From an uncultured Chloroflexia bacterium (GTDB taxonomy: Bacteria; Chloroflexota; Limnocylindria; Limnocylindrales; CSP1-4), in assembly GCA_963707395.1 (NCBI GenBank), contig CAVPPQ010000002.1, positions 195,474-259,473 on the forward strand: a DNA stretch of 64,000 nt, written 5' to 3'. How positions within the stretch are numbered: the stretch's first letter is position 1; every line of letters begins with the position of its first letter. The notes under the pieces were generated by a model. That model had not been told where the DNA came from. It saw only the letters and a list, made by a program, of their open reading frames with translations, and made no database searches. A program made the translations under genes and the position numbers. Positions 41,394 to 54,318 of this stretch are shown here, piece by piece.

Positions 41394-42914
41394 ATGATCG
41401 GCGACGGCGGCCAGGGCGACCTGGCCGCCGATCTGCGAGGCATCAGCAAGCGCTTCGGCGACCTCATCGCCAACGACGAGGTGGACCTCTCGCTGGCGCG
41501 AGGCGAGGTGCATGCCCTGCTGGGCGAGAACGGCGCCGGCAAGACGACGCTGATGCGCATCCTCTACGGGCTCACCCGGATGGACAGCGGCAGCATCCTG
41601 ATCGGCGATCGACCAGTCAGCATCGGCTCGCCGCGGGACGCCATCGCGGCCGGGGTGGGCATGGTCACCCAGCACTTCTCGCTGGTGCAGCCCATGACCG
41701 TGACGGAGAACCTCGTGCTGGGGCGCGCGCGAGGCGCGCGGCTGGACCTGGCCGCCGGGCGCCGCTCCGTGGAGGCCGCCGCGGAGCGCTTCGGCATCGC
41801 GGTCCGGCCGGAGGCCATCGTCTCGGAGCTCTCGGTCGGCGAGCAGCAGCGCGTCGAGATCGTCAAGGCCCTGGCGCGTGACTGTCGCGTGCTCATCCTC
41901 GACGAGCCCACGGCCGTCCTCGTGCCCCACGAGGTGGAGGCCCTCTTCGAGACCCTGCGGCGCCTCGTTGGCGAGGGCCTTTCGGTGGTCTTCATCAGCC
42001 ACAAGCTGGGCGAGGTGCGCGCCATCAGCGACCGGGTCAGCGTCATGCGGCGCGGGCGCATGGTCGGCACCGCCCCCGGATCGACCGACGAGCGCGAGCT
42101 GGCACGGATGATGGTGGGCAGGCCGACCTTCGGTGTCGGGCAGCAGGAGACCATCTGGGGGGGCGGGGAGCCTCGACTCAAGGTCCGCGAGGTCTCGGCG
42201 CTGGGCGGTCACGGGCGGCCGGCCCTGCACGGCGTCTCACTGGAGGTGCACGCGGGTGAGATCCTCGGCGTCGCCGGTGTCTCAGGCAATGGCCAGACCG
42301 AGCTGGCCGAGGTCCTCTCGGGCATGCGCCCCGTGACCAGCGGCTCGGTCCTGGTGCACGAGCAAGAGCTGGCGGGGGCGGAACCGGCGGTCGTCATGGC
42401 CGCCGGCGTGGGACGCATCCCGGAGGACCGGCACGCCAGCCTGGTGCTGGATCTGCCCGTCTCGTTGAACCTCATCCTCGAGCACATCGACGATTTCACG
42501 CGCGGCGGCCGCCTCGACCGTCGCGCTGTGGATGTCCACGCTCGAGAGCTCATCGAGCGCTACCGCATCAAGGCCCAGCCCGATGACCGCGTGGCCACCC
42601 TGTCCGGCGGCAACATCCAGAAGGTGCTCCTGGCACGGGTGCTGTCACGCGACCCGCACGTCATCGTCGTCTCACAGCCCACGCGCGGCCTGGACGTGGG
42701 CGCCAGCGAGTACGTGCGCGAGGAGCTCCTGGCGCACCGTCGCGACGGGGCGGCCATCCTGCTCATCTCCGAGGACCTCGACGAGCTGCTCTCCCTGTCC
42801 GACCGCATCGTGGTGCTCTACGAAGGTCGGGTCGTGGGCCGCATGGCGGCCTCGCAGGCCGAGCCGGAGCAGCTGGGCATGCTCATGGCCGGGCGCGGCC
42901 AGGCCGCGGCATGA
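41394..42914 (+). CDS. ABC transporter ATP-binding protein with two tandem nucleotide-binding domains (nucleoside/sugar importer type)
   Basis: Walker A GENGAGKTT in NBD1. Degenerate second NBD typical of NupA/RnsA-type proteins. 506 aa. Confidence 0.85.
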   Translation: MIGDGGQGDLAADLRGISKRFGDLIANDEVDLSLARGEVHALLGENGAGKTTLMRILYGLTRMDSGSILIGDRPVSIGSPRDAIAAGVGMVTQHFSLVQPMTVTENLVLGRARGARLDLAAGRRSVEAAAERFGIAVRPEAIVSELSVGEQQRVEIVKALARDCRVLILDEPTAVLVPHEVEALFETLRRLVGEGLSVVFISHKLGEVRAISDRVSVMRRGRMVGTAPGSTDERELARMMVGRPTFGVGQQETIWGGGEPRLKVREVSALGGHGRPALHGVSLEVHAGEILGVAGVSGNGQTELAEVLSGMRPVTSGSVLVHEQELAGAEPAVVMAAGVGRIPEDRHASLVLDLPVSLNLILEHIDDFTRGGRLDRRAVDVHARELIERYRIKAQPDDRVATLSGGNIQKVLLARVLSRDPHVIVVSQPTRGLDVGASEYVREELLAHRRDGAAILLISEDLDELLSLSDRIVVLYEGRVVGRMAASQAEPEQLGMLMAGRGQAAA

Positions 42915-44058
42915 CGCTGGAGGCCCGTCGGGCCGCAGAGACACGCTTCGGACGCACGGGGACCATCATCCTGGGGGCCCTGGTGGCCGTCCTGGCGGTG
43001 ACCGGGGGCGCCTTCATCATCGCCGGCGCCAACCCGGTCGATGCCACCTTCGCCTACTTCGTCGCGCCGCTGACCCGCGAGTTCACGCTCTGGGAGGTCC
43101 TCAATGTCTCGACGCCGCTGCTCTTCGCGGGCGCGGCCGTGGCCATCGCCTTCCGGAGCGGCTACTGGAACATCGGTGTCGAAGGACAGCTGCTGATGGG
43201 TGCCGTGGCCGCGGCCGGCATCGGCCAGGTCGTGCACGGCTGGCCATCCATCGTGGTGCTGCCGCTCATGATCGTGGCCGGCGCACTGGCCGGCGCGGCA
43301 TGGGCCCTTGTGCCAGCCCTCCTGCGCGTGCGCCTGGGCATCGACGAGGTCGTCACCACGCTGCTCCTGAACCCCGTGGCGCTGCTGGTCGTGGAGGCCC
43401 TCCTCCACGGGCCATGGACGGACCCGGAGACCGGCTTCCCGGAATCGCCGCGCATCGCCGAAGCCGCCGAGTTCCCCAAGCTGGCGGCCTTCCTGCCCTT
43501 CCTGGGCAAGTCGCGGCTGCACATCGGGTTCATCATCGCCATCGTCATCATCGTCGCCGCCTGGTGGGTGCTGAGCCGCACTTCGACGGGCCTGCGCGTG
43601 CGTGCCGTGGGCCTCTCGCCACACGGGGCGCGCTTCGCCGGGATCAAGGTCGAGCGGACGCTCCTGCGGGTGGCGCTCATCAGCGGCGCGGTGGCCGGCG
43701 TGGCCGGCGTGAGCGAGGTGGCCGGCATCCAGTTCCGCCTCACAGCGGGCATCTCGCCGGGCTTCGGCTACACGGGCATCGTGGTGGCCATGCTGGGCGG
43801 CCTGACCATGCCCGGCGTCCTCCTGGCCGGCCTGCTGCTGGGCGACCTCGCCGTGGGCGCCTCGTCTGCGGTGCGCAGCCTGCAGATCCTTCACAGCTGG
43901 GGGCCGTGGTCGAGGGCACCCTGTTGCTGGTCGTCATCGGGGCCCTGGCGCTGCGCCGGGCCAGGTCGCGACAGGAGGATGAGCGCCCCGCCGACGAGGG
44001 TGAGCCGCCGCCGGCCGAGCCCAAGTCCATGGCGTCCGCCGAGGGGCCGCCGGGATGA
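42911..44058 (+). pseudogene. ABC transporter permease (BMP-system, NupB-like) with single-base frameshift near 43883-43888 (pseudogene or homopolymer sequencing error)
   Basis: Frame A encodes the permease up to …AVRSLQI, then degenerates into Cys/Trp nonsense. Frame B (ORF 42532..44058) carries the proper end …PSQLGAVVEGTLLLVVIGALALRR and an ATGA overlap with the next permease. One extra C in cagatCCttca restores it. Confidence 0.6.
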
Positions 44059-44969
44059 ACTTCCTGGCTGACATCCTGGCGGCCACGTTCCGCAACGCCA
44101 CGCCGCTCGTCTACGGCACGGTCGGGGAGACCTACGCGGAGCGGTCCGGCGTCCTCAACCTGGGCATCGAGGGCACGATGTACGCGGGAGCCTTCTTCGG
44201 CTTCGCCGTGGCCTTCCAGACTGGGAACCCCCTGGTCGGTCTCGTCGCCGCGATCGTCGTGGGCATGGTCGCAGGCGGCCTCATGGGGCTGCTCACGGTG
44301 ACGCTGGGAGCCAACCAGCACGTCAGCGGCCTGGGTCTGACCATCGGCCTCATCGGCATCTCCGAGTTCGCCAACCGGCTCATCTTCTCGGGCGACACGC
44401 TGGCCCGCATCGAGCCCATGCCGCTCTGGGATCCGCTGGCCGGCCTGGGTGACATCGGCACGATAGCCAACCAGTACGGCCTGACCTACCTGGCCTTCCT
44501 GGTCGTGGTGCCCGTGGCCTGGTGGGTGCTGAGCCGAACGCCGCTGGGCCTGTCGATCCGCGCCGTGGGCGAGAACCCCGAGGCGGCCGACGTGGCCGGC
44601 ATCAGCGTCTTCCGCATCCGCTATGTGGCGCTCATGATCGGTGGCGCGCTGATGGCGGTGGGCGGCGCATTCATCACGCTCTCGATGCTGGGCACCTTCA
44701 CCCTGGACATCATCGCCGGGCGCGGTTGGGTGTGCATCGCGCTCGTCATCTTCGGGCGCTGGCGCATCTTCCGCGGCGTGCTCGGCGCACTCGTCTTCGC
44801 GGCGGTCTTCTCGCTGGGCCTGCGCTTGCGCATCACGCCCGGCTTCGAGGGCGTGCCCAACGAGCTCATGCTGGCCCTGCCGTACGTGGTGGTCATCGCG
44901 GCGCTCGCCCTGTCGGGCCGCAACGTGCCATATCCCGGCGCCTACCTGAAGGCATACCGTCGTACCTAG
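44055..44969 (+). CDS. ABC transporter permease (BMP-system, NupC-like)
   Basis: 304 aa, polytopic, branched-chain/ribose-permease-like. Confidence 0.8.
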   Translation: MNFLADILAATFRNATPLVYGTVGETYAERSGVLNLGIEGTMYAGAFFGFAVAFQTGNPLVGLVAAIVVGMVAGGLMGLLTVTLGANQHVSGLGLTIGLIGISEFANRLIFSGDTLARIEPMPLWDPLAGLGDIGTIANQYGLTYLAFLVVVPVAWWVLSRTPLGLSIRAVGENPEAADVAGISVFRIRYVALMIGGALMAVGGAFITLSMLGTFTLDIIAGRGWVCIALVIFGRWRIFRGVLGALVFAAVFSLGLRLRITPGFEGVPNELMLALPYVVVIAALALSGRNVPYPGAYLKAYRRT

Positions 44970-45024: not shown

Positions 45025-45471
45025 ATGGACGACCAGGGATTCATGAAGATCGCCATCGAGGAGGCCGCCCGCGGGCTCTCGGAAGGCGGGGTGCCCGTCG
45101 GCGCGGCTCTCGTGGCCGACGGCAAGGTCCTGGGCTCAGGCCACAACCGGCGCGTCCAGCAGGGCAGCGCCATCCGCCACGGCGAGACGGACTGCCTGGA
45201 GAACATCGGGCGGCTGCACGCCTCGGTCTATCGGCGGGCCACGATGTACACGACGCTGTCACCCTGCGACATGTGCACGGGCGCCATCCTGCTGTACGGG
45301 ATCCCGCGCGTCGTCGTGGGCGAGAACGAGACGTTCATGGGTGGCGAAGGTCACCTGCGCTCGCGGGGCGTGGAGGTGGTGAACCTCGATTCGGCCGACT
45401 GCAAGGCGCTCATGGCCGAGTTCATCGCTCGCTACCCGGATATCTGGAATGAGGACATCGGGCAGGAGTGA
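45025..45471 (+). CDS. cytosine deaminase, Fcy1-like (CDA-fold zinc deaminase)
   Basis: HGE…SPCDMCTGAI zinc motifs. Overall very similar to my recollection of yeast Fcy1, including the YTTLSPCDMCTGAI and GIPR(V/C)VVGEN blocks. Confidence 0.8.
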   Translation: MDDQGFMKIAIEEAARGLSEGGVPVGAALVADGKVLGSGHNRRVQQGSAIRHGETDCLENIGRLHASVYRRATMYTTLSPCDMCTGAILLYGIPRVVVGENETFMGGEGHLRSRGVEVVNLDSADCKALMAEFIARYPDIWNEDIGQE

Positions 45472-46146: not shown

Positions 46147-46548
46147 TCACGTCCGTTCCAGGACGACCTCGTTGACGGCGCCCTCGACGATCGTCCAGGC
46201 GCGCACCTCGGGCGGCTCGCCCAGGAAGGAGCAGAGCACGTAGAGCGCGTCGGGGTAGGCCGCCAGGCCGACGTCGGTGGCCGAGGGCCGTGGCGGCGAG
46301 GCGACGTGGGAGTGGACGATGGCCCAGATCACCTCGTCCGCGTCGTCGATCTCGAGCATGACGCGCAGCTGCTCGTCGGGGTCCATGAGATAGCGATAGG
46401 GAGAGGCAGCCGCGTTGCGCATGCCCACGAAACGCGTCGGGACGCCGCCGTCCTCGGGGGTCCGGTCGGAGACGAGGAGTCCGCAGCCCTCGTTGGGCAG
46501 GGCGTCCCGCAGCCAGTCGACGAGCTCGTCGCGGATGCGGGGCGACAT
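46147..46548 (-). CDS. mec: JAMM/MPN+ metalloprotease, Mec+-like (CysO C-terminal processing and cysteine release)
   Basis: JAMM motif E…HSHVASPPRPSATD; Mec-like N-terminus (RIRDELVDWLRDALPNEGCG). Start set at the internal ATG; the ORF could extend upstream to 46746. Confidence 0.7.
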   Translation of the reverse strand: MSPRIRDELVDWLRDALPNEGCGLLVSDRTPEDGGVPTRFVGMRNAAASPYRYLMDPDEQLRVMLEIDDADEVIWAIVHSHVASPPRPSATDVGLAAYPDALYVLCSFLGEPPEVRAWTIVEGAVNEVVLERT

Positions 46549-46866
46549 GGCGGCCGAGGCCGGCGTCCACGGCGGGCCGGCGCCGCGGCCGACGGCACCC
46601 CAGTCGGCCAGGTGGCGTTCCTCCGCGACCGCGCCCAGGTCGGCCGCCCGTTGCCAGGCCGCGACTCCGGGGACGGAGGCATCGCCCGTGACCGCCGGCT
46701 CGTGAGCCTCGGAGCGGATCGGAGACGCGCCGGCGCCGGAGGCCACGCCCGTGCCAGGACCCTGGCCGGTGCCGAGGATCCTCGCGGGTGCCGGGATCCT
46801 CGCCGGTGCTGGGGTCCTCGCGGGTGCTGGGGTCCTCGCCAGAGGTCGGGCCCCGGTCGCTGTCGC

Positions 46867-47886
46867 TCACCACAGGTTCAGGCTGTCCACGACATCCTCG
46901 TCGGCGTCGAGATCACGCGTCCAGATGTCCTCGCTGAGGTACTTCCAGCCACCGTCGGCGAGGAGCGCGACGATCGTGCCGCGCTCCATCTCGCGAGCCA
47001 GCTGCTTGGCCGCCACCATGACCGCGCCACAGGAGACGCCGGCGAAGATGCCCTCGCGGTCGGTGAGCTCGCGCAGCGCCTCGATGGCCTGCGCGTTGGA
47101 AACGAGGAGCCGGCCGTCCAGCACGGAGGCATCGAAGATCTCCGGGATGAAGCCCTCCTCCAGCGAGCGCAGGCCCTGGACGCGCTCGCCGGGCAGCGGC
47201 TCCGCGGCATAGATGCGCACGTCGGGGTTGTGCCGCCGCAACCGCCGGCCCACGCCCATGAGCGTGCCGCCGGTGCCCAAACCAGCCACGAAGGCGTCCA
47301 CCTCCGGACAGTCGGCGATGATCTCCTCCGCGGTGGTCTCCTCGTGCGCCCGCGGATTGGCTTCGTTGCCGTACTGGTAGGGCATCACGAAGCGCGCGTC
47401 CCTGGCCACGAGGTGCTTGGCCAGCGCGATCGCCCCATTTGAGCCCAGGTGGCCCGGCGAGTCGATGACCTCCGCGCCGAAGAGCGCCAGCAACTGGCGC
47501 CGTTCCATGGTCACGTTGTCCGGCACCACGACGGCCACGCGATAGCCCTTGCGGCGCGCGATCATGGCCAGCCCGATGCCGGTATTGCCGCTGGTGGGCT
47601 CGATGATGATGGAGTCCGGCCGCAGGCGGCCGGCGCGCTCCAGGTCCTCGATGAGGTACTTGGCGACGCGGTCCTTGACCGACCCCGTCGGGTTCATGAA
47701 CTCCAGCTTGGCGTAGAGCCGCACGTTGGGATTGGGGCAGACGTTGGGGACCTCCACCAGCGGCGTGAAGCCGATGGCGTCCACGATGGACGGGAAGCGG
47801 CCCCCGTGTCGCGCGTTGCCGCCGTGGGCATGCGGCCGCAGAGCGTCGACCTCGACCCCGGACGGCCGCTCCGACGTCGCCGTCAC
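46867..47886 (-). CDS. cysM: cysteine synthase, CysM-type (CysO-thiocarboxylate-dependent O-phosphoserine sulfhydrylase-like)
   Basis: PLP lysine region NPTGSVKDR, and GTGGT glycine loop. GTG start. Confidence 0.85.
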   Translation of the reverse strand: MTATSERPSGVEVDALRPHAHGGNARHGGRFPSIVDAIGFTPLVEVPNVCPNPNVRLYAKLEFMNPTGSVKDRVAKYLIEDLERAGRLRPDSIIIEPTSGNTGIGLAMIARRKGYRVAVVVPDNVTMERRQLLALFGAEVIDSPGHLGSNGAIALAKHLVARDARFVMPYQYGNEANPRAHEETTAEEIIADCPEVDAFVAGLGTGGTLMGVGRRLRRHNPDVRIYAAEPLPGERVQGLRSLEEGFIPEIFDASVLDGRLLVSNAQAIEALRELTDREGIFAGVSCGAVMVAAKQLAREMERGTIVALLADGGWKYLSEDIWTRDLDADEDVVDSLNLW

Positions 47887-47898
47887 GAGCGTGGCGCC

Positions 47899-48174
47899 CT
47901 ACCGGCCTCCGGCCATGGCCGGCAGAAGGATGACCTCGTCGGCAGCGGCGACCGGGGTCTCCAGGCCCTGCTCGTAGCGCACGTCGCGGCCGTTGACGTA
48001 GACGTTGACGAAGCGGTTCAGCTCGCCGTCGGCGGAGAAGACCTGCTCGCGGAGGCCGGGGTGCAGCTCCAGCAGCGACGTGAGGGCCTCACCGACGGTC
48101 GCGCCACTCACCTCGACGCGCTTCTGGTTGCCGGCCTGTGCGCGCAGCACGGGCGGGATGCGGACCGCGGTCAT
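47899..48174 (-). CDS. cysO: sulfur-carrier protein CysO (MoaD/ThiS family) with one residue (Arg) after the Gly-Gly
   Basis: 91 aa. The C-terminal two-thirds (RFVNVYVNGRDVRY…VILLPAMAGG-R) closely match my recollection of the M. tuberculosis CysO C-terminus (RFVNIYVNDEDVRF…SVTILPAVAGG). ATGA overlap with the upstream E1 gene. Confidence 0.8.
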   Translation of the reverse strand: MTAVRIPPVLRAQAGNQKRVEVSGATVGEALTSLLELHPGLREQVFSADGELNRFVNVYVNGRDVRYEQGLETPVAAADEVILLPAMAGGR

Positions 48175-49358
48175 GCACTCGCCTCCATCGTGGTCGGAAG
48201 GTTCAGGGGGAAGGTGAAGACGCCATCGGCGGCCTCGGGCGCCGGCAGCTCGCCATCGCCGCAGGCGGGGCAATGCGGGTCGCGCCGCAGCTGCAGCTCG
48301 CTGAAGGAGCCGTCCAGGGCGTCGTAGATGAGCAGGCGCCCGGCCAGCGAGTCGCCGATGGCGAGGAGGACCTTGATGCCTTCCGTGGCCTGCAGGAGGC
48401 CCATGACGCCGGGCACGACACCCAGGACGCCGGCCACCGAACAGCCCGGCGCCAGCTCGGGGGGCGGCGGGGTCGGGTAGAGGCAGCGATAGCAGGGCCC
48501 CTCGTGAGGCGTGAAGACGGTCAGCTGGCCCTCGAAGCGGAAGACGGAGGCGTGCACGACAGGGATGCCGGCGCGCACGGCAGCATCGTTGAGCGTGTAG
48601 CGCGTCTCGAAGGTATCGGTGCCATCGAAGATGAGGTCGTACCCGGCGATGAGACGCTCCACGTTGTCCGGTCCGAGCATCTCCTCGAAGGTCTCGACGC
48701 GAACGTCCGGGTTGAGCTCCCGGATGGTCTGCGCGGCCGACTCCGTCTTCTTCATGCCCACCCGGTCGGCGCGGTGGACGACCTGGCGCTGCAGGTTGGA
48801 GACGTCCACGACGTCGAAGTCGACGATACCGATGGTGCCCACGCCGGCTGCGGCCAGGTAGAGCATGGCCGGAGAGCCCAGGCCGCCGGCGCCGATGAAG
48901 AGCACCCGTGAGCCGAGGAGCTTGGCCTGGCCGGCCGCGCCGACCTCCGGGATGAGCAGGTGGCGCGAGTAGCGCTGCTTCTGCTCGCTGGTCAGCAGCA
49001 CGGGTTGCGTGAAGGGGCGACCCTCCGACTTCCAGGCCTGGAAGCCGCCGCTCATGGAGGCCACATCGGTGTAGCCCATGGCCTGCAGCGTCTGGGCCGC
49101 GAAGAGCGAGCGGATGCCGCCCGCGCAGTAGAGGATGACCGGCACCTCGCGGTCCGGGGCGAGGCCCTCGATCTCCTGTTCGATGAACGATTTCGAGACG
49201 TGATGGGCGCCGCCGATGTGCCCTTGCTCCCACTCGCTGACCTCGCGGACGTCGACCAGGACGGCGCCTTCCCGCGTGGCGCGCTCCGTCTGTGCCGTGG
49301 TCACCTCGCGAACGGCGGCGCGGGCATCGCGCAGCAGGTCGCGGTACGACTTGCTCAT
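48171..49358 (-). CDS. moeZ: MoeZ/MoeB-like E1 sulfurtransferase with inverted domain order (N-terminal rhodanese, C-terminal ThiF/E1 domain with CxxC…CxxC)
   Basis: Residues about 1-125 are a rhodanese domain (active-site CAGGIRS). E1 Rossmann motif LFIGAGGLGS follows. Zinc cysteines CYRC…CPAC. Start set at MSKSYRDLL. Confidence 0.8.
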   Translation of the reverse strand: MSKSYRDLLRDARAAVREVTTAQTERATREGAVLVDVREVSEWEQGHIGGAHHVSKSFIEQEIEGLAPDREVPVILYCAGGIRSLFAAQTLQAMGYTDVASMSGGFQAWKSEGRPFTQPVLLTSEQKQRYSRHLLIPEVGAAGQAKLLGSRVLFIGAGGLGSPAMLYLAAAGVGTIGIVDFDVVDVSNLQRQVVHRADRVGMKKTESAAQTIRELNPDVRVETFEEMLGPDNVERLIAGYDLIFDGTDTFETRYTLNDAAVRAGIPVVHASVFRFEGQLTVFTPHEGPCYRCLYPTPPPPELAPGCSVAGVLGVVPGVMGLLQATEGIKVLLAIGDSLAGRLLIYDALDGSFSELQLRRDPHCPACGDGELPAPEAADGVFTFPLNLPTTMEASA

Positions 49359-49801
49359 GTCGGTGCGACCGCGTCGGTCGCGGAACCCCCGTGGGTCGTG
49401 CCTGCGCCACCCGCCGCGGAGGCCGGGGCGTCCGGGCGGCCGTGGAGGGCGTGGTGCAGCGTGTTCAGGGAGAGGAGCGCGCACTTCAGCCGCGCCGGGC
49501 TGATCTCGATGCCCAGCAGGTCCAGGACGTCCTGATCGGTCAGGGCCTCGACGTCGGCCAACGGGCGGCCCTTGACCTCGTCGGTGAGCAGCGAGGCGGA
49601 GGCCTGGCTGATGGCGCAGCCGCGGCCGCTGAAGGCCACGTCGCGGACGGTGCCGTCCGCGCCGAGCGCCAGCATCATCGTGATGCGGTCGCCACAGAGC
49701 GGGTTGTTGCCCTCGTAGACGGCATCAGGCGCGTCCAGCGTGCCGAAGTTGTGGGGCTGTCGATAGTGCTCGAGGATCTCGTCGCGGTAGAGGTCGTCCA
49801 T
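49355..49801 (-). CDS. sufU: SufU/IscU-like Fe-S scaffold / sulfur acceptor
   Basis: Conserved cysteines LCGD…GRGCAISQASAS…LKC. ATGA overlap with moeZ. Confidence 0.8.
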   Translation of the reverse strand: MDDLYRDEILEHYRQPHNFGTLDAPDAVYEGNNPLCGDRITMMLALGADGTVRDVAFSGRGCAISQASASLLTDEVKGRPLADVEALTDQDVLDLLGIEISPARLKCALLSLNTLHHALHGRPDAPASAAGGAGTTHGGSATDAVAPT

Positions 49802-49839
49802 GGGAGTGTGCAGGGTACCCGATGCGGTGGGGTGGATGG

Positions 49840-51144
49840 CTAGGAGATGCTGCCGCCGCTGAGCGGGATGGCCGGCACAGGAGACACGGGCGGGCGGCCA
49901 AAGATGGCCTGCACCTTGCGCAGGCCAGCGGCCAGGCGATCGACGTCGTCACGGCCGCTGTACACGCTGAACGAGGCACGGTTGGTGGCTGGCAGCCCCA
50001 GGCGCTCGTGGAGCGGCTGCGTGCAGTGGTGCCCGGCACGGATGGCCACCGCCTCGCGGTCGAGCAGCGTGGCGACATCGTGGGGATGCGCCTCCGGCAG
50101 GGTGAAGGTGACGATGCCGGCCCGCTCGGCTGCCGTGCGCGGCCCGTGGATGCGGATGCCCGGCACCTCGCGCGGCAGCATCTCCAGCGCGTACGCGGTG
50201 AGGGCCTCCTCGTGCACGGCGACCCGCTCCATGCCGATGGCGGAGAGGTAGTCGACGGCCGCCCCCAGGCCGATGGCGGCCCCGATGTCGGGCGTGCCGG
50301 CCTCGAACTTGTGGGGGATCTCGTTGAACGTGGTGTGCCGCAGGTGCACAGAGCTGATCATCTCGCCGCCGCTCATGAAGGGCGGCATGGCCTCCAGGAT
50401 CTCGGCTCGCGCCCACAGGGCACCCGAGCCGGGGGGGCCCAGGACCTTGTGGCCGGAGAAGACGTAGAAGTCGGCGCCCAGGTCCGCCACGTCCACCGGC
50501 AGGTGCGGCACGGCCTGGGCGCCGTCCACCAGCACCAGTGCGCCGGCGTCGTGCGCCTGGCGAACCATCTCGCGGACGGGCAGCAGCGTGCCCAAGCCAT
50601 TGGACTTGTGGGTGAAGGCCACCAGCCGCGGACGCGTGCGCAGCAGGACCTCCCAGGCGTCCATGTTGAGGTGTCCCTCGGCGTCGAAGGGCACGAACTC
50701 CAGGTCGGCGTCCTTCTCCTGGGCCAGCAGCTGCCAGGGCACCAGGTTGGCGTGGTGCTCCAGCTCCGTCAGGACGATGGTGTCCGCCCGGCCGATGTTG
50801 CCCCGCCCCCAGGCGTAGGCCACCAGGTTGATGGCCTCCGTGGCGTTGCGCACGAAGACGATCTCGCGAGCATCGGGTGCGCCCAGGAAGCGGGCCACCT
50901 TCTGGCGGGCCCCCTCGTAGGCCGCCGTCGCCTCCTCGCCGATGGTGTAGATGCCGCGGTGCACGTTGGCGCTGTAGCGGCTGTGGTAAGCGTCCACCGC
51001 CTCGATGACCGAGCGCGGCTTGAGGGCCGTGGCAGCGCTGTCCAGGTAGGCCAGTCGCCGCCCACCGAAGTCGCGCTCGAAGATCGGAAAGTCGCGGCGG
51101 ACGACGTCCGGGTCGAGCGGGGGTTGGTCGTGCACGGGTGCCAT
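49840..51144 (-). CDS. sufS: cysteine desulfurase, SufS (class II)
   Basis: PLP lysine FSGHKVLGP, active-site Cys region RAGHHCTQPL. 434 aa. Confidence 0.9.
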   Translation of the reverse strand: MAPVHDQPPLDPDVVRRDFPIFERDFGGRRLAYLDSAATALKPRSVIEAVDAYHSRYSANVHRGIYTIGEEATAAYEGARQKVARFLGAPDAREIVFVRNATEAINLVAYAWGRGNIGRADTIVLTELEHHANLVPWQLLAQEKDADLEFVPFDAEGHLNMDAWEVLLRTRPRLVAFTHKSNGLGTLLPVREMVRQAHDAGALVLVDGAQAVPHLPVDVADLGADFYVFSGHKVLGPPGSGALWARAEILEAMPPFMSGGEMISSVHLRHTTFNEIPHKFEAGTPDIGAAIGLGAAVDYLSAIGMERVAVHEEALTAYALEMLPREVPGIRIHGPRTAAERAGIVTFTLPEAHPHDVATLLDREAVAIRAGHHCTQPLHERLGLPATNRASFSVYSGRDDVDRLAAGLRKVQAIFGRPPVSPVPAIPLSGGSIS

Positions 51145-51173
51145 GTCGGGTTCGGGTCGAGTGCCCGGCGCCG

Positions 51174-52142
51174 TCAGCCCGCCTGGACCTCGAGGTGCTC
51201 CACCTCGGGGTCCTCGTCGAGTGCGTCGATGTCGAAGCCGGCCTCGCGCAGGATGGGCGCGTAACCCTCGTCCTCCAGCCGCAGGGCCAGGTCCTTGCCG
51301 CCCGAGGCGATGATGCGGCCGTGCGCCAGGACGTGGACGAGGTCAGGCTGGATGTAGTTGAGCAGGCGCTGGTAGTGGGTGATGAGGAGCACGCCCAGGT
51401 CCGGGCTGAGCTGGGCGTTGACGCCCTCGGCCACGATGCGCAGCGCATCGATGTCGAGACCCGAATCGGTCTCGTCGAGGATCGCGAACTCCGGCTCCAG
51501 GATGGCCATCTGGAGCATCTCCAGGCGCTTCTTCTCGCCGCCGGAGAAGCCCTCGTTGACGTACCGACCAGCGAACGAGTCGTCCAGCTTGAGTAGCGCC
51601 ATCTTGTCGCGCAGGAGTCGGCGGAAGTCGGCCATCTTGATGCCGCCCCGGGTCGGGTCGGACGGATCGATCTCGCCGTCGCCGCCCTCCAGCCCCCGTC
51701 GGCGCGCATTGAGCGCGGTGCGCAGGAAGGAGGCCACGGAGAGCCCGGGCACGGCCGTGGGGTACTGGAAGGCCAGGAAGAGGCCCAGGCGGGCGCGCTT
51801 GTCCGGGCTGAGCTGGAGGATGTCGTGGCCCTTCCAGATGACCTCGCCCTGCGTCACCTGGTAGGCGGGGTGGCCCATGAGGGCGTAGGCGAGGGTCGTC
51901 TTGCCCGAGCCGTTGCGGCCCATGATGGCGTGGACCTCGCCCTTGCGGACCTCCAGGTCGATGCCGCGCAGGATCTCGCGCGTGGGGTCAGCCGAGGGGA
52001 CGACGTGCAGATCCCGGATGAGGAGGACGCGGTCGGCATCGGTGGCCGAAGCGCGCTCGGCAGCTGAGGCGCTCTCGGCGGCAGTGGCGGGGCTGGTGCT
52101 GGCCTGGGGATCTCCGGGCAGCGTGGCAGTGTCGCGGTTCAT
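51174..52142 (-). CDS. sufC: Fe-S cluster assembly ATPase SufC (with ~50-aa N-terminal extension)
   Basis: Walker A GRNGSGKTT, signature FSGGEKKR, Walker B ILDETDSGLD, H-loop ITHYQR; close to canonical SufC. Confidence 0.85.
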   Translation of the reverse strand: MNRDTATLPGDPQASTSPATAAESASAAERASATDADRVLLIRDLHVVPSADPTREILRGIDLEVRKGEVHAIMGRNGSGKTTLAYALMGHPAYQVTQGEVIWKGHDILQLSPDKRARLGLFLAFQYPTAVPGLSVASFLRTALNARRRGLEGGDGEIDPSDPTRGGIKMADFRRLLRDKMALLKLDDSFAGRYVNEGFSGGEKKRLEMLQMAILEPEFAILDETDSGLDIDALRIVAEGVNAQLSPDLGVLLITHYQRLLNYIQPDLVHVLAHGRIIASGGKDLALRLEDEGYAPILREAGFDIDALDEDPEVEHLEVQAG

Positions 52143-52708
52143 GGCTGGACGATGGGCTCCTTGGCGGGACGGTCGGGGAGTGGTCGGACGGTCACGAGGA
52201 CCGCGTCATCTTGACCCGGCCGAGTGTCGCGGCCGGACGTCGGCGGGTGCGAGGGGTGCCCAGCTCCGGGCAGGGTGAGCTCTGCCAGGGAGGTGGACTC
52301 CAGCGCCTGCACGACGGCGTCGCGGACGCGACGCCAGAGCAGATCGACCGTGCAGAACCCGCCCCGGGAGCAGAGTTCGCCGGGGTGCGCGTCCCCGCTG
52401 GCACAGATCATCGGCGCGATGGGACCCTCGAGCGCGGTCACGACCTCCGCCATGTGGATGCGCGAGGGGTGCCGCGCGAGCTCGTAGCCGCCGTGCGCGC
52501 CGCGGGTGCTGGTGACCAAGCCGGCCTCGCGCAGGCTGACCACCAGCTGCTCCAGGTAGGGGCGCGGCAAGTCCTCGTGCTCAGCCATCTCCGAAAGGCT
52601 GACGGGGCCGCTGCCGTGGTGGCGCGCCAGCTCCACCATGAGGCGCACGCCGTACTCCCCACGCGTGGAGAAGTGGAGGGCTCCCGATGGCGGGGCGGTG
52701 GTGCGCAC
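52139..52708 (-). CDS. Rrf2 family transcriptional regulator (IscR/SufR-like) with C-terminal extension
   Basis: HTH STRGEYGVRLMVELARHH…VSLSEMAEHEDLPRPYLEQL. GTG start. ATGA overlap with sufC. Confidence 0.8.
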   Translation of the reverse strand: MRTTAPPSGALHFSTRGEYGVRLMVELARHHGSGPVSLSEMAEHEDLPRPYLEQLVVSLREAGLVTSTRGAHGGYELARHPSRIHMAEVVTALEGPIAPMICASGDAHPGELCSRGGFCTVDLLWRRVRDAVVQALESTSLAELTLPGAGHPSHPPTSGRDTRPGQDDAVLVTVRPLPDRPAKEPIVQP

Positions 52709-52867: not shown

Positions 52868-53398
52868 TCAGCTGGGGCGTTGTGCCCGTTGCGCGACCCT
52901 GATCTCGTGACGACGCGGGGTGCGCCCATCCACGGACGCGCGCAGCACCACCTGCCCCTCCGCGGGGATGGCCACCGGGATGTTGAAGGCCATCGGCACC
53001 AGCATGTCCATGCCGGCCATGCCGGGCGGGCGGCCCGTCGTCAACTTCGCCTCGAAGCCGACCAGGCGCTGCTCGTCCTGCTGCATCTCGACCGCCACCG
53101 TGTGCTCGTCGTCGGTGTGGGCGAACGGGATGCGCACGCCAAGGGCGATGCCCACGATCATGCGGTGCGGGAAGGCGGACGGCTGGATGCGGTCCCAGGC
53201 GGCACCCATGAGGTAGAGCTTGCCGTTGACGACCTCGGCCCGGTCAGCCACCAGGAGATAGTCGATCTCCGGCTTGCGAGCGAAGGTCGCCTCGGCCGCT
53301 TCCAGGGCGCCCTCCAGCCCATCGGCCGCCTGCGGCTCTCCTGGCGCGTCGGGATCGGGTGTCTGCGCGGGGTCGGGTGTCTGCGCGGGATCGGTCAC
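52868..53398 (-). CDS. hypothetical protein (176 aa, acidic Pro/Ala-rich N-terminus)
   Basis: Overlaps upstream DUF4389 gene by 4 nt. No motif recognised. Confidence 0.45.
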   Translation of the reverse strand: MTDPAQTPDPAQTPDPDAPGEPQAADGLEGALEAAEATFARKPEIDYLLVADRAEVVNGKLYLMGAAWDRIQPSAFPHRMIVGIALGVRIPFAHTDDEHTVAVEMQQDEQRLVGFEAKLTTGRPPGMAGMDMLVPMAFNIPVAIPAEGQVVLRASVDGRTPRRHEIRVAQRAQRPS

Positions 53399-54318
53399 AG
53401 TCGCGGGTCGTCCTCTCCGAGCGAGAAGGGCGGGTAGCGGTCGACCATCAGGAGCTGATAGGCGAGGACCCGGAAATACCAGCGGTTGTAGCCGCCGACG
53501 ATGGTGTAGATGACATCCGCCTGGTGGCCCGTGAAGAGGACCGGCACCCAGGTGAACCAGATGAGGAACATGGCCAGGATGTTCAGGAACGAGAGCACGA
53601 TGTAGTGCGGGATGAGGATGATGAAGCGCACCCAGATGCCGATGAGCGGGATGCCCCAGAGGCGGTTGATGCGCACGCCCTCGTCGAAGCGCACCGTGAC
53701 TGGGTGCTCCTCGCCGGAGAGGGAGAAGGGCGGATAGGTCGGTGTCAGCAGCTCAAGGTAGGCCTGCACGCGGACCAACCAGCCCATCAGGCCACCGATC
53801 CAGCGGTAGCCCCAGCCCGGGAAGCGGCCCAGGATGAGCACGGGGATCCAGGTCACGAGGCTGAGCAGAGCGGCCACGATGGCGATGAGCGCCAACAGGA
53901 TGAAGTGCGGGATGAGCAGGATGGTGCGGACGAGGATGCCGACGATCGGGATCCCCCAGAGCCGGTTGATCCGAGCGAGGCGGTCGTACGAGATGTTGAC
54001 CGGGTAGGCGTCAGGGGCAAGGGGGTAGGCCGGGGGCGGCTGCCAGACCGGCTCAGGCGGGAGATAGCCTGGGGGCTGGTAGCCGGGCGGAGGCAGCGGG
54101 TAACCGGGCGGAGGCGGCGGGTAGCCGCCGGCGGGCGGGTAGCCGGGCGGAGGCGGCGGGGCGTAGCCGCCAGGGGGCGGCGGGTAGCCACCAGGGGGCG
54201 GCGGGTAGCCACCAGGCTGGGAGTAGCCCGGGGGCGGCGCCTGCCACGGCGATGGCTGCTGGCCTTCACTCCATCGCGGATCCTGCGGAGTCGCGGGGCC
54301 CTGGGATTCCCACGTCAT
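53395..54318 (-). CDS. DUF4389 domain membrane protein (two tandem DUF4389 repeats) with Pro/Gly/Tyr-rich N-terminal repeat region
   Basis: Two copies of R(I/L)NRLWGIP…IPH(F/Y)I(L/V)L…YPPFSL. N-terminus has (GGYPPPP)n. Confidence 0.7.
   Translation of the reverse strand: MTWESQGPATPQDPRWSEGQQPSPWQAPPPGYSQPGGYPPPPGGYPPPPGGYAPPPPPGYPPAGGYPPPPPGYPLPPPGYQPPGYLPPEPVWQPPPAYPLAPDAYPVNISYDRLARINRLWGIPIVGILVRTILLIPHFILLALIAIVAALLSLVTWIPVLILGRFPGWGYRWIGGLMGWLVRVQAYLELLTPTYPPFSLSGEEHPVTVRFDEGVRINRLWGIPLIGIWVRFIILIPHYIVLSFLNILAMFLIWFTWVPVLFTGHQADVIYTIVGGYNRWYFRVLAYQLLMVDRYPPFSLGEDDPRL

Follow-up and report, generated by a model that had tools for sequence, protein, structure and literature searches.

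Does a rhodanese domain placed in front of an E1 adenylating domain set an enzyme apart from relatives such as MoeZ, in which the rhodanese comes last, and which sulfur carrier would such an enzyme serve? The question was raised by a gene on the minus strand of a 64,000-nucleotide stretch of DNA (the window) from an uncultured Chloroflexia bacterium (assembly GCA_963707395.1, contig CAVPPQ010000002.1, positions 195,474 to 259,473 of the forward strand). An earlier reading of the letters alone (the original prediction) had proposed here a MoeZ-like E1 enzyme with inverted domain order. The analysis indicates that the protein, called Rhodanese-E1 below, is an ordinary member of the curated family NF006444/PRK08762, a bifunctional adenylyltransferase/sulfurtransferase whose most likely partner is the CysO-like carrier encoded by the next gene. 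We regard this reading as a whole, charging of CysO included, as highly probable. The gene and its motifs are the following.

48171..49358, minus strand: Rhodanese-E1 (Rhd-ThiF/MoeB) gene, 395 amino acids (open reading frame, Pfam order, NF006444 match)
49026..49274, minus strand: rhodanese domain, Pfam residues 29-111 (PF00581, E-value 1.6e-20)
49125..49127, minus strand: codon of the rhodanese active-site Cys78, in the six-residue loop C78-A-G-G-I-R83 (sequence, alignment)
48264..48971, minus strand: ThiF/MoeB E1 adenylation domain, residues 130-365 (PF00899, E-value 1.9e-84, 238 of 238 profile positions)
48876..48893, minus strand: nucleotide-binding motif G156-A-G-G-L-G161 (aligned to GLGGLG of ThiF; invariant in 31 relatives)
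48483..48494, minus strand: first CxxC, C289-Y-R-C292, presumed Cys4 zinc site (aligned to GCYRC of ThiF; invariant)
48441..48443, minus strand: codon of the crossover-loop Cys306 (aligned to the Cys of the NCRTAG loop of E. coli ThiF; invariant)
48261..48272, minus strand: second CxxC, C363-P-A-C366 (aligned to GCPVC of ThiF; invariant)

The open reading frame starts at an ATG at 49358 and ends 395 codons further on at a TGA (48173-48171). A GTG at 49484 offers an alternative upstream start; the ATG was favoured because it overlaps the sufU stop codon in an ATGA and because homologues of 392-396 amino acids start at the same MxKSYRDLL. The original prediction was borne out on the layout of the gene: the frame is unbroken, Pfam, which it had suggested as a check, places the rhodanese before ThiF, and the motifs that it quoted (CAGGIRS, LFIGAGGLGS and CxxC...CxxC) are all present. 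Across the 31 aligned relatives, YC78AGGIRS, LFIG156AGGLG161S, both CxxC motifs and C306 are unchanged. The rhodanese module extends in all over about residues 1-120. Its loop is that of a catalytic rhodanese (CxxGxR, with the Cys as first of six residues), C78, G81, R83 and S84 being invariant in the same alignment, and a Cys occupies the active-site position in 80 of 80 related loci. By analogy with such enzymes, Cys78 is predicted to be the persulfide carrier and sulfurtransferase residue. The second half shows the features of PF00899 E1 domains, namely the Rossmann GxGxxG, the N-terminal Arg (RYxRQ/H), the DxTD Asp and the fold, and aligns to the solved structures of E. coli ThiF (1zfn, 9.7e-57) and MoeB (1jw9, 4.4e-54). 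It is most likely an ATP-dependent adenylyltransferase acting on a GG-terminated carrier. The two-domain rhodanese-first architecture is far beyond chance.

A fused frame could also result from a sequencing or assembly error joining separate rhodanese and thiF genes, and comparison with a sister assembly indeed shows at least three single-base indels in the window, the adjoining JAMM gene being hit by one. Over 13.2 kb, the window and this second public assembly (ENA ERZ25039462 contig_12036, locus L081) share 99.85% identity. None of their differences (17 substitutions, 3 single-base indels) falls within the E1, cysO or cysM gene; L081 carries the same 395-amino-acid gene, and its gene caller gives Rhodanese before ThiF. 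Furthermore, tblastn revealed an uninterrupted two-domain frame in 78 of 80 independent species-level genomes, the remaining two being cut by contig ends, the same single frame recurs in hundreds of metagenome proteins, and the curated full-length hidden Markov model (HMM) of NF006444 aligns collinearly. With the gene identical in L081 and the frame single in 78 of 80 genomes, an artefactual fusion was rejected as having a negligible chance of being true. A frameshift or stop between the domains, named in the original prediction as what would undo it, was looked for in the second assembly; none was found, and the fusion stands.

We then considered how common the order is. Rhodanese-E1 matches NF006444 at 546.4 bits (E-value 2.7e-164; curated cut-off 449) with its residues 6-370 running collinearly and without a break along profile positions 4-371 of 387, and its isolated rhodanese (residues 5-124) matches positions 3-122 at 118.7 bits. 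NF006444 is a curated equivalog named 'molybdopterin-synthase adenylyltransferase MoeB', whose profile is itself rhodanese-first; several public relatives are annotated under exactly this name by the NCBI pipeline, and the identical protein sequence is already public (P0001). In a collection of 5.8 billion proteins, all 120 best matches (74-100% identity) are rhodanese-first, while the 150 best 50%-identity cluster representatives divide into 68 rhodanese-first, 63 rhodanese-last (MoeZ/MoeBR type) and 18 without rhodanese. The classification of loci covers the 80 that were retrieved; a figure of 587 relatives is no count of the rhodanese-first order, because most of the search patterns fall in the ThiF domain. 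Rhodanese-first genes occur in Chloroflexota (Limnocylindrales, Anaerolineae, Ktedonobacterales) and Actinomycetota (Gaiellales, Acidimicrobiia, Solirubrobacterales), as well as in Dormiibacterota, Acidobacteria, Poribacteria, Entotheonella, Burkholderia cenocepacia, a gammaproteobacterial metagenome-assembled genome (MAG) and Cystobacterineae.

The architecture is therefore already known: it is catalogued, automatically annotated and phylogenetically widespread. The curated family and the spread over phyla and 50%-identity clusters rule out that the order is rare, and the original prediction, which had implied an unusual order, is overturned on this point by the very finding that it had said would refute it, that databases show the order to be common. 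Its phrase 'circularly permuted' was also misplaced, because what differs is the order in which two autonomous domains are fused, each fold being left as it is. The label 'MoeZ-like' was inexact as well. The MoeZ model NF005902, with a cut-off of 647 bits, gave only 364.7, split over two stretches that are not collinear; the isolated N-terminal 125 residues fall on the C-terminal end of that model (positions 295-383 of 392, 46 bits) and of PRK07411 (positions 279-382 of 390, 30.7 bits). Voss et al. 2011 (PMC3227635) tell the two groups apart by their CxxC motifs, which MoeB/MoeBR have and MoeZ/MoeZR mostly lack. Here C289xxC292 and C363xxC366 are both present and invariant, and by both motifs the protein is MoeB-type, not MoeZ-type.

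Which carrier the enzyme serves was approached through its neighbours. The minus-strand string reads rrf2, sufC, sufS, sufU, Rhd-E1, a 91-amino-acid ThiS-family carrier, a pyridoxal phosphate (PLP)-dependent cysteine synthase, a JAMM peptidase and a DUF1269 gene.

52139..52708, minus strand: Rrf2-family regulator, head of the gene string (PF02082, E-value 5.7e-37)
51174..52142, minus strand: SufC-like ATP-binding cassette (ABC) ATPase (PF00005; syntenic in 25 of 80 loci)
49840..51144, minus strand: SufS-type cysteine desulfurase (PF00266, E-value 2.7e-138)
49355..49801, minus strand: SufU/NifU-N sulfur-transfer protein (PF01592; TIGR01994 SufU, 109.1 bits against a cut-off of 92.5)
47899..48174, minus strand: CysO-like ThiS/MoaD-family sulfur carrier, 91 amino acids, C-terminus ...AMAGG-R (PF02597)
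46867..47886, minus strand: CysM-like PLP-dependent cysteine synthase (PF00291)
46147..46746, minus strand: JAMM/Mec-like metallopeptidase (PF14464, E-value 2.6e-18)

The sufU stop overlaps the E1 start, and the E1 stop overlaps the ATG of the carrier, each in an ATGA; these overlaps couple translation of the E1 gene to that of sufU before it and of the CysO-like carrier after it. The best solved relative of the carrier is M. tuberculosis CysO (3dwg_C, 4.8e-19), aligned through the C-terminal Gly-Gly, and that of the synthase is M. tuberculosis CysM/O-phosphoserine sulfhydrylase (3dwg_A/3dki, 1.1e-88; next family 5.5e-76), so that both lead to the same CysM-CysO complex, 3dwg. A conserved Arg of the synthase aligns to the M. 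tuberculosis CysM residue which we take to be Arg220 and to govern the use of O-phosphoserine. Among the 80 related loci, the neighbours of the E1 gene include CysO (57 loci), CysM (55) and JAMM (52), with E1-CysO-CysM-JAMM as the almost invariable order, in Chloroflexota and Actinomycetota alike. The suf/rrf2 linkage is restricted to Chloroflexota-like relatives (SufU in 33 loci, SufS in 27, SufC in 25 and Rrf2 in 22). The link to a CysO-type carrier that the original prediction had assumed is upheld. By analogy with the characterised enzymes, Rhodanese-E1 would then, with high likelihood, adenylate and thiocarboxylate the adjacent CysO-like carrier for CysM-dependent cysteine synthesis. Charging of CysO is the best supported function because of the identities of carrier, CysM and JAMM, the conserved block and an operon type already described.

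An E1, a carrier and a JAMM protein might also, instead of or besides sulfur relay, make up a ubiquitin-like conjugation system (SAMPylation or TtuB-like). The carrier passes the cut-off of the NCBIfam SAMP1 equivalog (73.9 bits against 60) and has SAMP1 among its PDB matches, the E1 matches the UbaA model at 333.5 bits and the JAMM protein matches 'desampylase' at 64.7 bits. However, the latter two scores are both far short of their cut-offs (450 and 130), the SAMP1 match of the carrier (4e-10) is more distant than that to M. tuberculosis CysO, and a cysteine synthase is in the operon at 55 of the 80 loci. Conjugation is thus improbable.

Several observations weigh against the charging of CysO for cysteine synthesis. 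The CysM protein scores just under the NCBIfam cysKM cut-off (332.6 against 344.15), and about 23 of the 80 related loci have no CysO nearby. Neither sequence search nor Foldseek found a rhodanese-first E1 chain in the PDB, and no biochemical study of a rhodanese-first E1 was found in the literature searched, whose coverage was partial; that literature describes C-terminal rhodanese fusions only and none in which an E1 has an N-terminal rhodanese. A persulfide derived from SufS would make cysteine synthesis a futile cycle; a more plausible reading of the suf linkage is that cysteine supply and Fe-S assembly are regulated together. Finally, because the family carries the NCBI name 'MoeB' (molybdopterin) and one relative (P0235) is fused to an N-terminal MobA-like nucleoside triphosphate (NTP)-transferase domain as MobA-Rhd-ThiF, some members, possibly Rhodanese-E1 too, may serve molybdenum cofactor (Moco) synthesis.

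In its strong form this last point makes the protein a genuine MoeB with MoaD as its main or only client. Besides the family label and P0235, such a role would agree with mycobacterial MoeZR, which serves both MoaD and CysO (PMC3227635), and with several Poribacteria and Entotheonella relatives that lack a nearby CysO. No Moco gene, however, adjoins Rhodanese-E1 within the window, and the gene is coupled to the CysO-like carrier, followed by CysM and JAMM, in a block kept in 52-57 of the 80 loci. A dedicated MoeB is distinctly the less likely role; service to MoaD as a further function beside CysO charging is possible. The curated name of NF006444 probably misdescribes most members, because their conserved context is CysO/CysM/JAMM cysteine synthesis.

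The domain order, the motifs, membership of the family and the operon with its conservation are shown by the data; from analogy with MoeB, ThiF, MoeZR and Uba4 we infer the chemical steps, the sulfur source and the carrier specificity of CysO charging, which would run as follows. The JAMM peptidase would first cut the terminal Arg off CysO (...GG-R) and expose the Gly-Gly. The window carrier aligns to M. tuberculosis CysO up to GG and then has one extra Arg (47899-47904); because it ends in GG-R, trimming would be needed before adenylation, presumably by this peptidase. The E1 domain would then bind ATP (GAGGLG, the Arg of RYSRH, the Asp of DGTD) and adenylate the C-terminal glycine, while a persulfide would form on Cys78 of the N-terminal rhodanese. 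The sulfur could come from thiosulfate or another sulfane donor, from a cysteine-desulfurase relay, for which the co-transcribed SufS and SufU are candidates, or directly from sulfide. The persulfide would attack the acyl-adenylate or a Cys306 thioester, giving an acyl-disulfide that is resolved to the thiocarboxylate CysO-COSH. CysM would join CysO-COSH to an activated serine (probably O-phosphoserine), and cysteine would finally be freed by the JAMM peptidase. MoeZR acting with CysO is the precedent for activation of this carrier by an E1-rhodanese (PMC3227635), and in Uba4 the rhodanese persulfide, which sits on a mobile domain, attacks a thioester formed on the crossover-loop Cys202 (PMC7527816).

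The C-termini of the carriers vary among the relatives. Of 57 carriers, 21 end in GG and the others have 1-7 extra residues (A, R, S, C, Q, AG, QSLFG and others) or are part of gene fusions. ThiS and CysM form a single frame in four loci, from Gaiellaceae (L026), Gaiellales (L029) and Actinomycetes MAGs (L028 and L058). Further fusions are ThiS-Rhd-ThiF, Rhd-ThiF-ThiS and JAB-ThiS-Rhd-ThiF, the last uniting all four functions in one protein of 634 amino acids (fused relatives: L026:7185-8375, L074:5719-7200; P0100, P0121, P0126, P0235). Where the carrier is not at the C-terminal end of the fusion, proteolytic release would be needed.

The AlphaFold2 monomer, built on a 31-sequence alignment, comprises two folded domains (mean predicted local distance difference test score, pLDDT, 74; predicted template modelling score, pTM, 0.60), with the crossover loop 295-313 and the C-terminal tail 373-395 disordered. 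When the model was compared with the PDB by Foldseek, the E1 half alone aligned (ThiF, MoeB, Uba4), with a query-normalised template modelling (TM) score of about 0.5; the TM score of the E1 domain model normalised to ThiF/MoeB was 0.85. The N-terminal Arg-finger helix of MoeB reaches into the ATP site of the partner protomer. Because the short N-terminal tether would set the rhodanese Cys beside this helix, the persulfide might be delivered in trans across the dimer with a fixed geometry, unlike in Uba4/MOCS3, where the linker is C-terminal, long and mobile, and the joining of rrf2-sufCSU in Chloroflexota might pass CysO-made cysteine straight to SufS for Fe-S assembly. We hold this combined idea to be rather doubtful, and it is about equally doubtful that the position of the tether yields a mechanistically distinct persulfide delivery.

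How the order arose was examined by comparing the two halves separately. One conceivable history is that a MoeZ ancestor moved its C-terminal rhodanese to the N-terminus in a single rearrangement. The ThiF domains leave room for this: those of rhodanese-first proteins score 220-350 bits against the query and those of rhodanese-last proteins 250-316 bits, which is about equal, and the two types intermingle in a crude neighbour-joining tree of 134 representatives (28 state changes against about 55 with shuffled labels). The rhodanese halves, in contrast, largely set the types apart. The N-terminal rhodanese is closer to stand-alone rhodaneses (GlpE model, 59 bits; PDB 6mxv, 1.1e-42) than to the rhodaneses of MoeZ and PRK07411, and against the query rhodanese the C-terminal ones score 15-57 bits and the N-terminal ones 19-116 bits. 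In an equally crude neighbour-joining tree of 122 rhodanese representatives (13 state changes against about 41 shuffled), the two types are largely separate, with pure clades of 28 and 27. Relocation of the MoeZ rhodanese is quite unlikely; independent fusions are the more likely origin as far as these domain comparisons go, the trees being weak and the clustering partial.

Seven of 79 related loci (five Poribacteria and two Entotheonella) have an in-frame TGA aligned to the Cys306 codon.

L062:6922-6924, L067:6922-6924, L068:6916-6918, L070:6922-6924, L072:6919-6921, L075:6922-6924, L076:1307-1309: TGA codons aligned to window 48441-48443

Gene callers end these proteins at about residue 304-306 (P0164, P0166 and P0225, for example). 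Because the conserved coding sequence goes on past the TGA (..VPS[TGA]SEAGVLGVLP..), the codon probably specifies selenocysteine; a report of 2005 describes a 'MoeB' family of selenoproteins (PMC1088965). About 17 nucleotides 3' of the TGA, the relatives have a CCUGGG...CCCAGG hairpin resembling a selenocysteine insertion sequence (SECIS); it was no more stable than shuffled sequence.

Other features were noted around the operon. Neither sufB nor sufD lies between sufC and sufS in the window (49355-52708), but sufS and sufU are about 2.5-3 kb apart in the loci L012-L014, L016 and L027, and sufB/sufD may lie in this interval. SufC has an N-terminal extension of about 50 residues. On the 5' side of rrf2 are genes for a DUF6941 protein (52868-53398, minus strand) and for a proline-rich DUF4389 membrane protein with a PPPGGY-repeat N-terminus (53395-54318, minus strand). 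As to the indels, an extra base near 46775 in the window, relative to L081, throws the low-complexity extension (EDPSTREDPSTGEDPGTREDPGTG...) at the N-terminus of the JAMM protein out of frame; the JAMM gene is a 199-amino-acid frame in the window and one of 240 amino acids, starting at the cysM stop, in L081 (affected stretch 46746-46873). The extra base must be a sequencing error or else a polymorphism between strains; the JAB domain is intact. The other two, at about 45390 in a cytidine/dCMP deaminase gene (45025-45471, plus strand) and at about 43886 in an ABC permease gene (42911-44071, plus strand), may alter the predicted gene ends.

The architecture carries little weight as a discovery, being catalogued, with the exact protein already in public databases. 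The coupling to a suf operon, seen in Chloroflexota, suggests that oxidation-resistant cysteine synthesis and Fe-S cluster assembly are under joint control.

Among known systems, the closest is the NF006444/PRK08762 family itself, which has the same collinear layout, a rhodanese at profile positions 3-122 followed by ThiF, and from which Rhodanese-E1 shows no structural difference; although the family is named for Moco synthesis, the neighbouring genes of most relatives, as of Rhodanese-E1 itself, suggest cysteine synthesis through CysO/CysM. E. coli ThiF and MoeB, the best solved relatives, share the adenylation fold, the Cys4 zinc site, GxGxxG and the catalytic Arg and Asp residues; they differ in having no rhodanese domain and take their sulfur from separate proteins. 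M. tuberculosis MoeZR (Rv3206c) likewise unites E1 and rhodanese in one polypeptide activating CysO, and its partners CysO, CysM and JAMM (Mec+) are homologous to those of the window. Judging from the H37Rv gene numbers, the MoeZR gene is presumably unlinked to cysO, while that of Rhodanese-E1 lies within the operon. In MoeZR the rhodanese is C-terminal and the CxxC motifs are mostly absent (PMC3227635), while here the rhodanese is N-terminal and both motifs are present. Uba4/MOCS3, the eukaryotic activators of Urm1/MOCS2A, resemble Rhodanese-E1 in having both a crossover-loop Cys and a rhodanese Cys, and the adenylation domain of Uba4 is 37% identical in the Foldseek alignment. In Uba4, however, the C-terminal rhodanese is attached by a long regulatory linker that occupies the groove for Urm1 (PMC7527816), and here only about 10-15 residues separate the rhodanese from the N-terminal helix of the E1. 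The operon belongs to a type that Iyer, Burroughs and Aravind described in 2006 (PMC1779556, Table 1 row 4c), ThiS/MoaD with E1-rhodanese, JAB and cysteine synthase, with Chloroflexus, Rubrobacter and Salinibacter among the organisms that carry it. It encodes the same four gene products, and differs from that type in the rrf2-sufC-sufS-sufU genes joined on to it, a link present in 22-33 of the 80 loci, all Chloroflexota-like.

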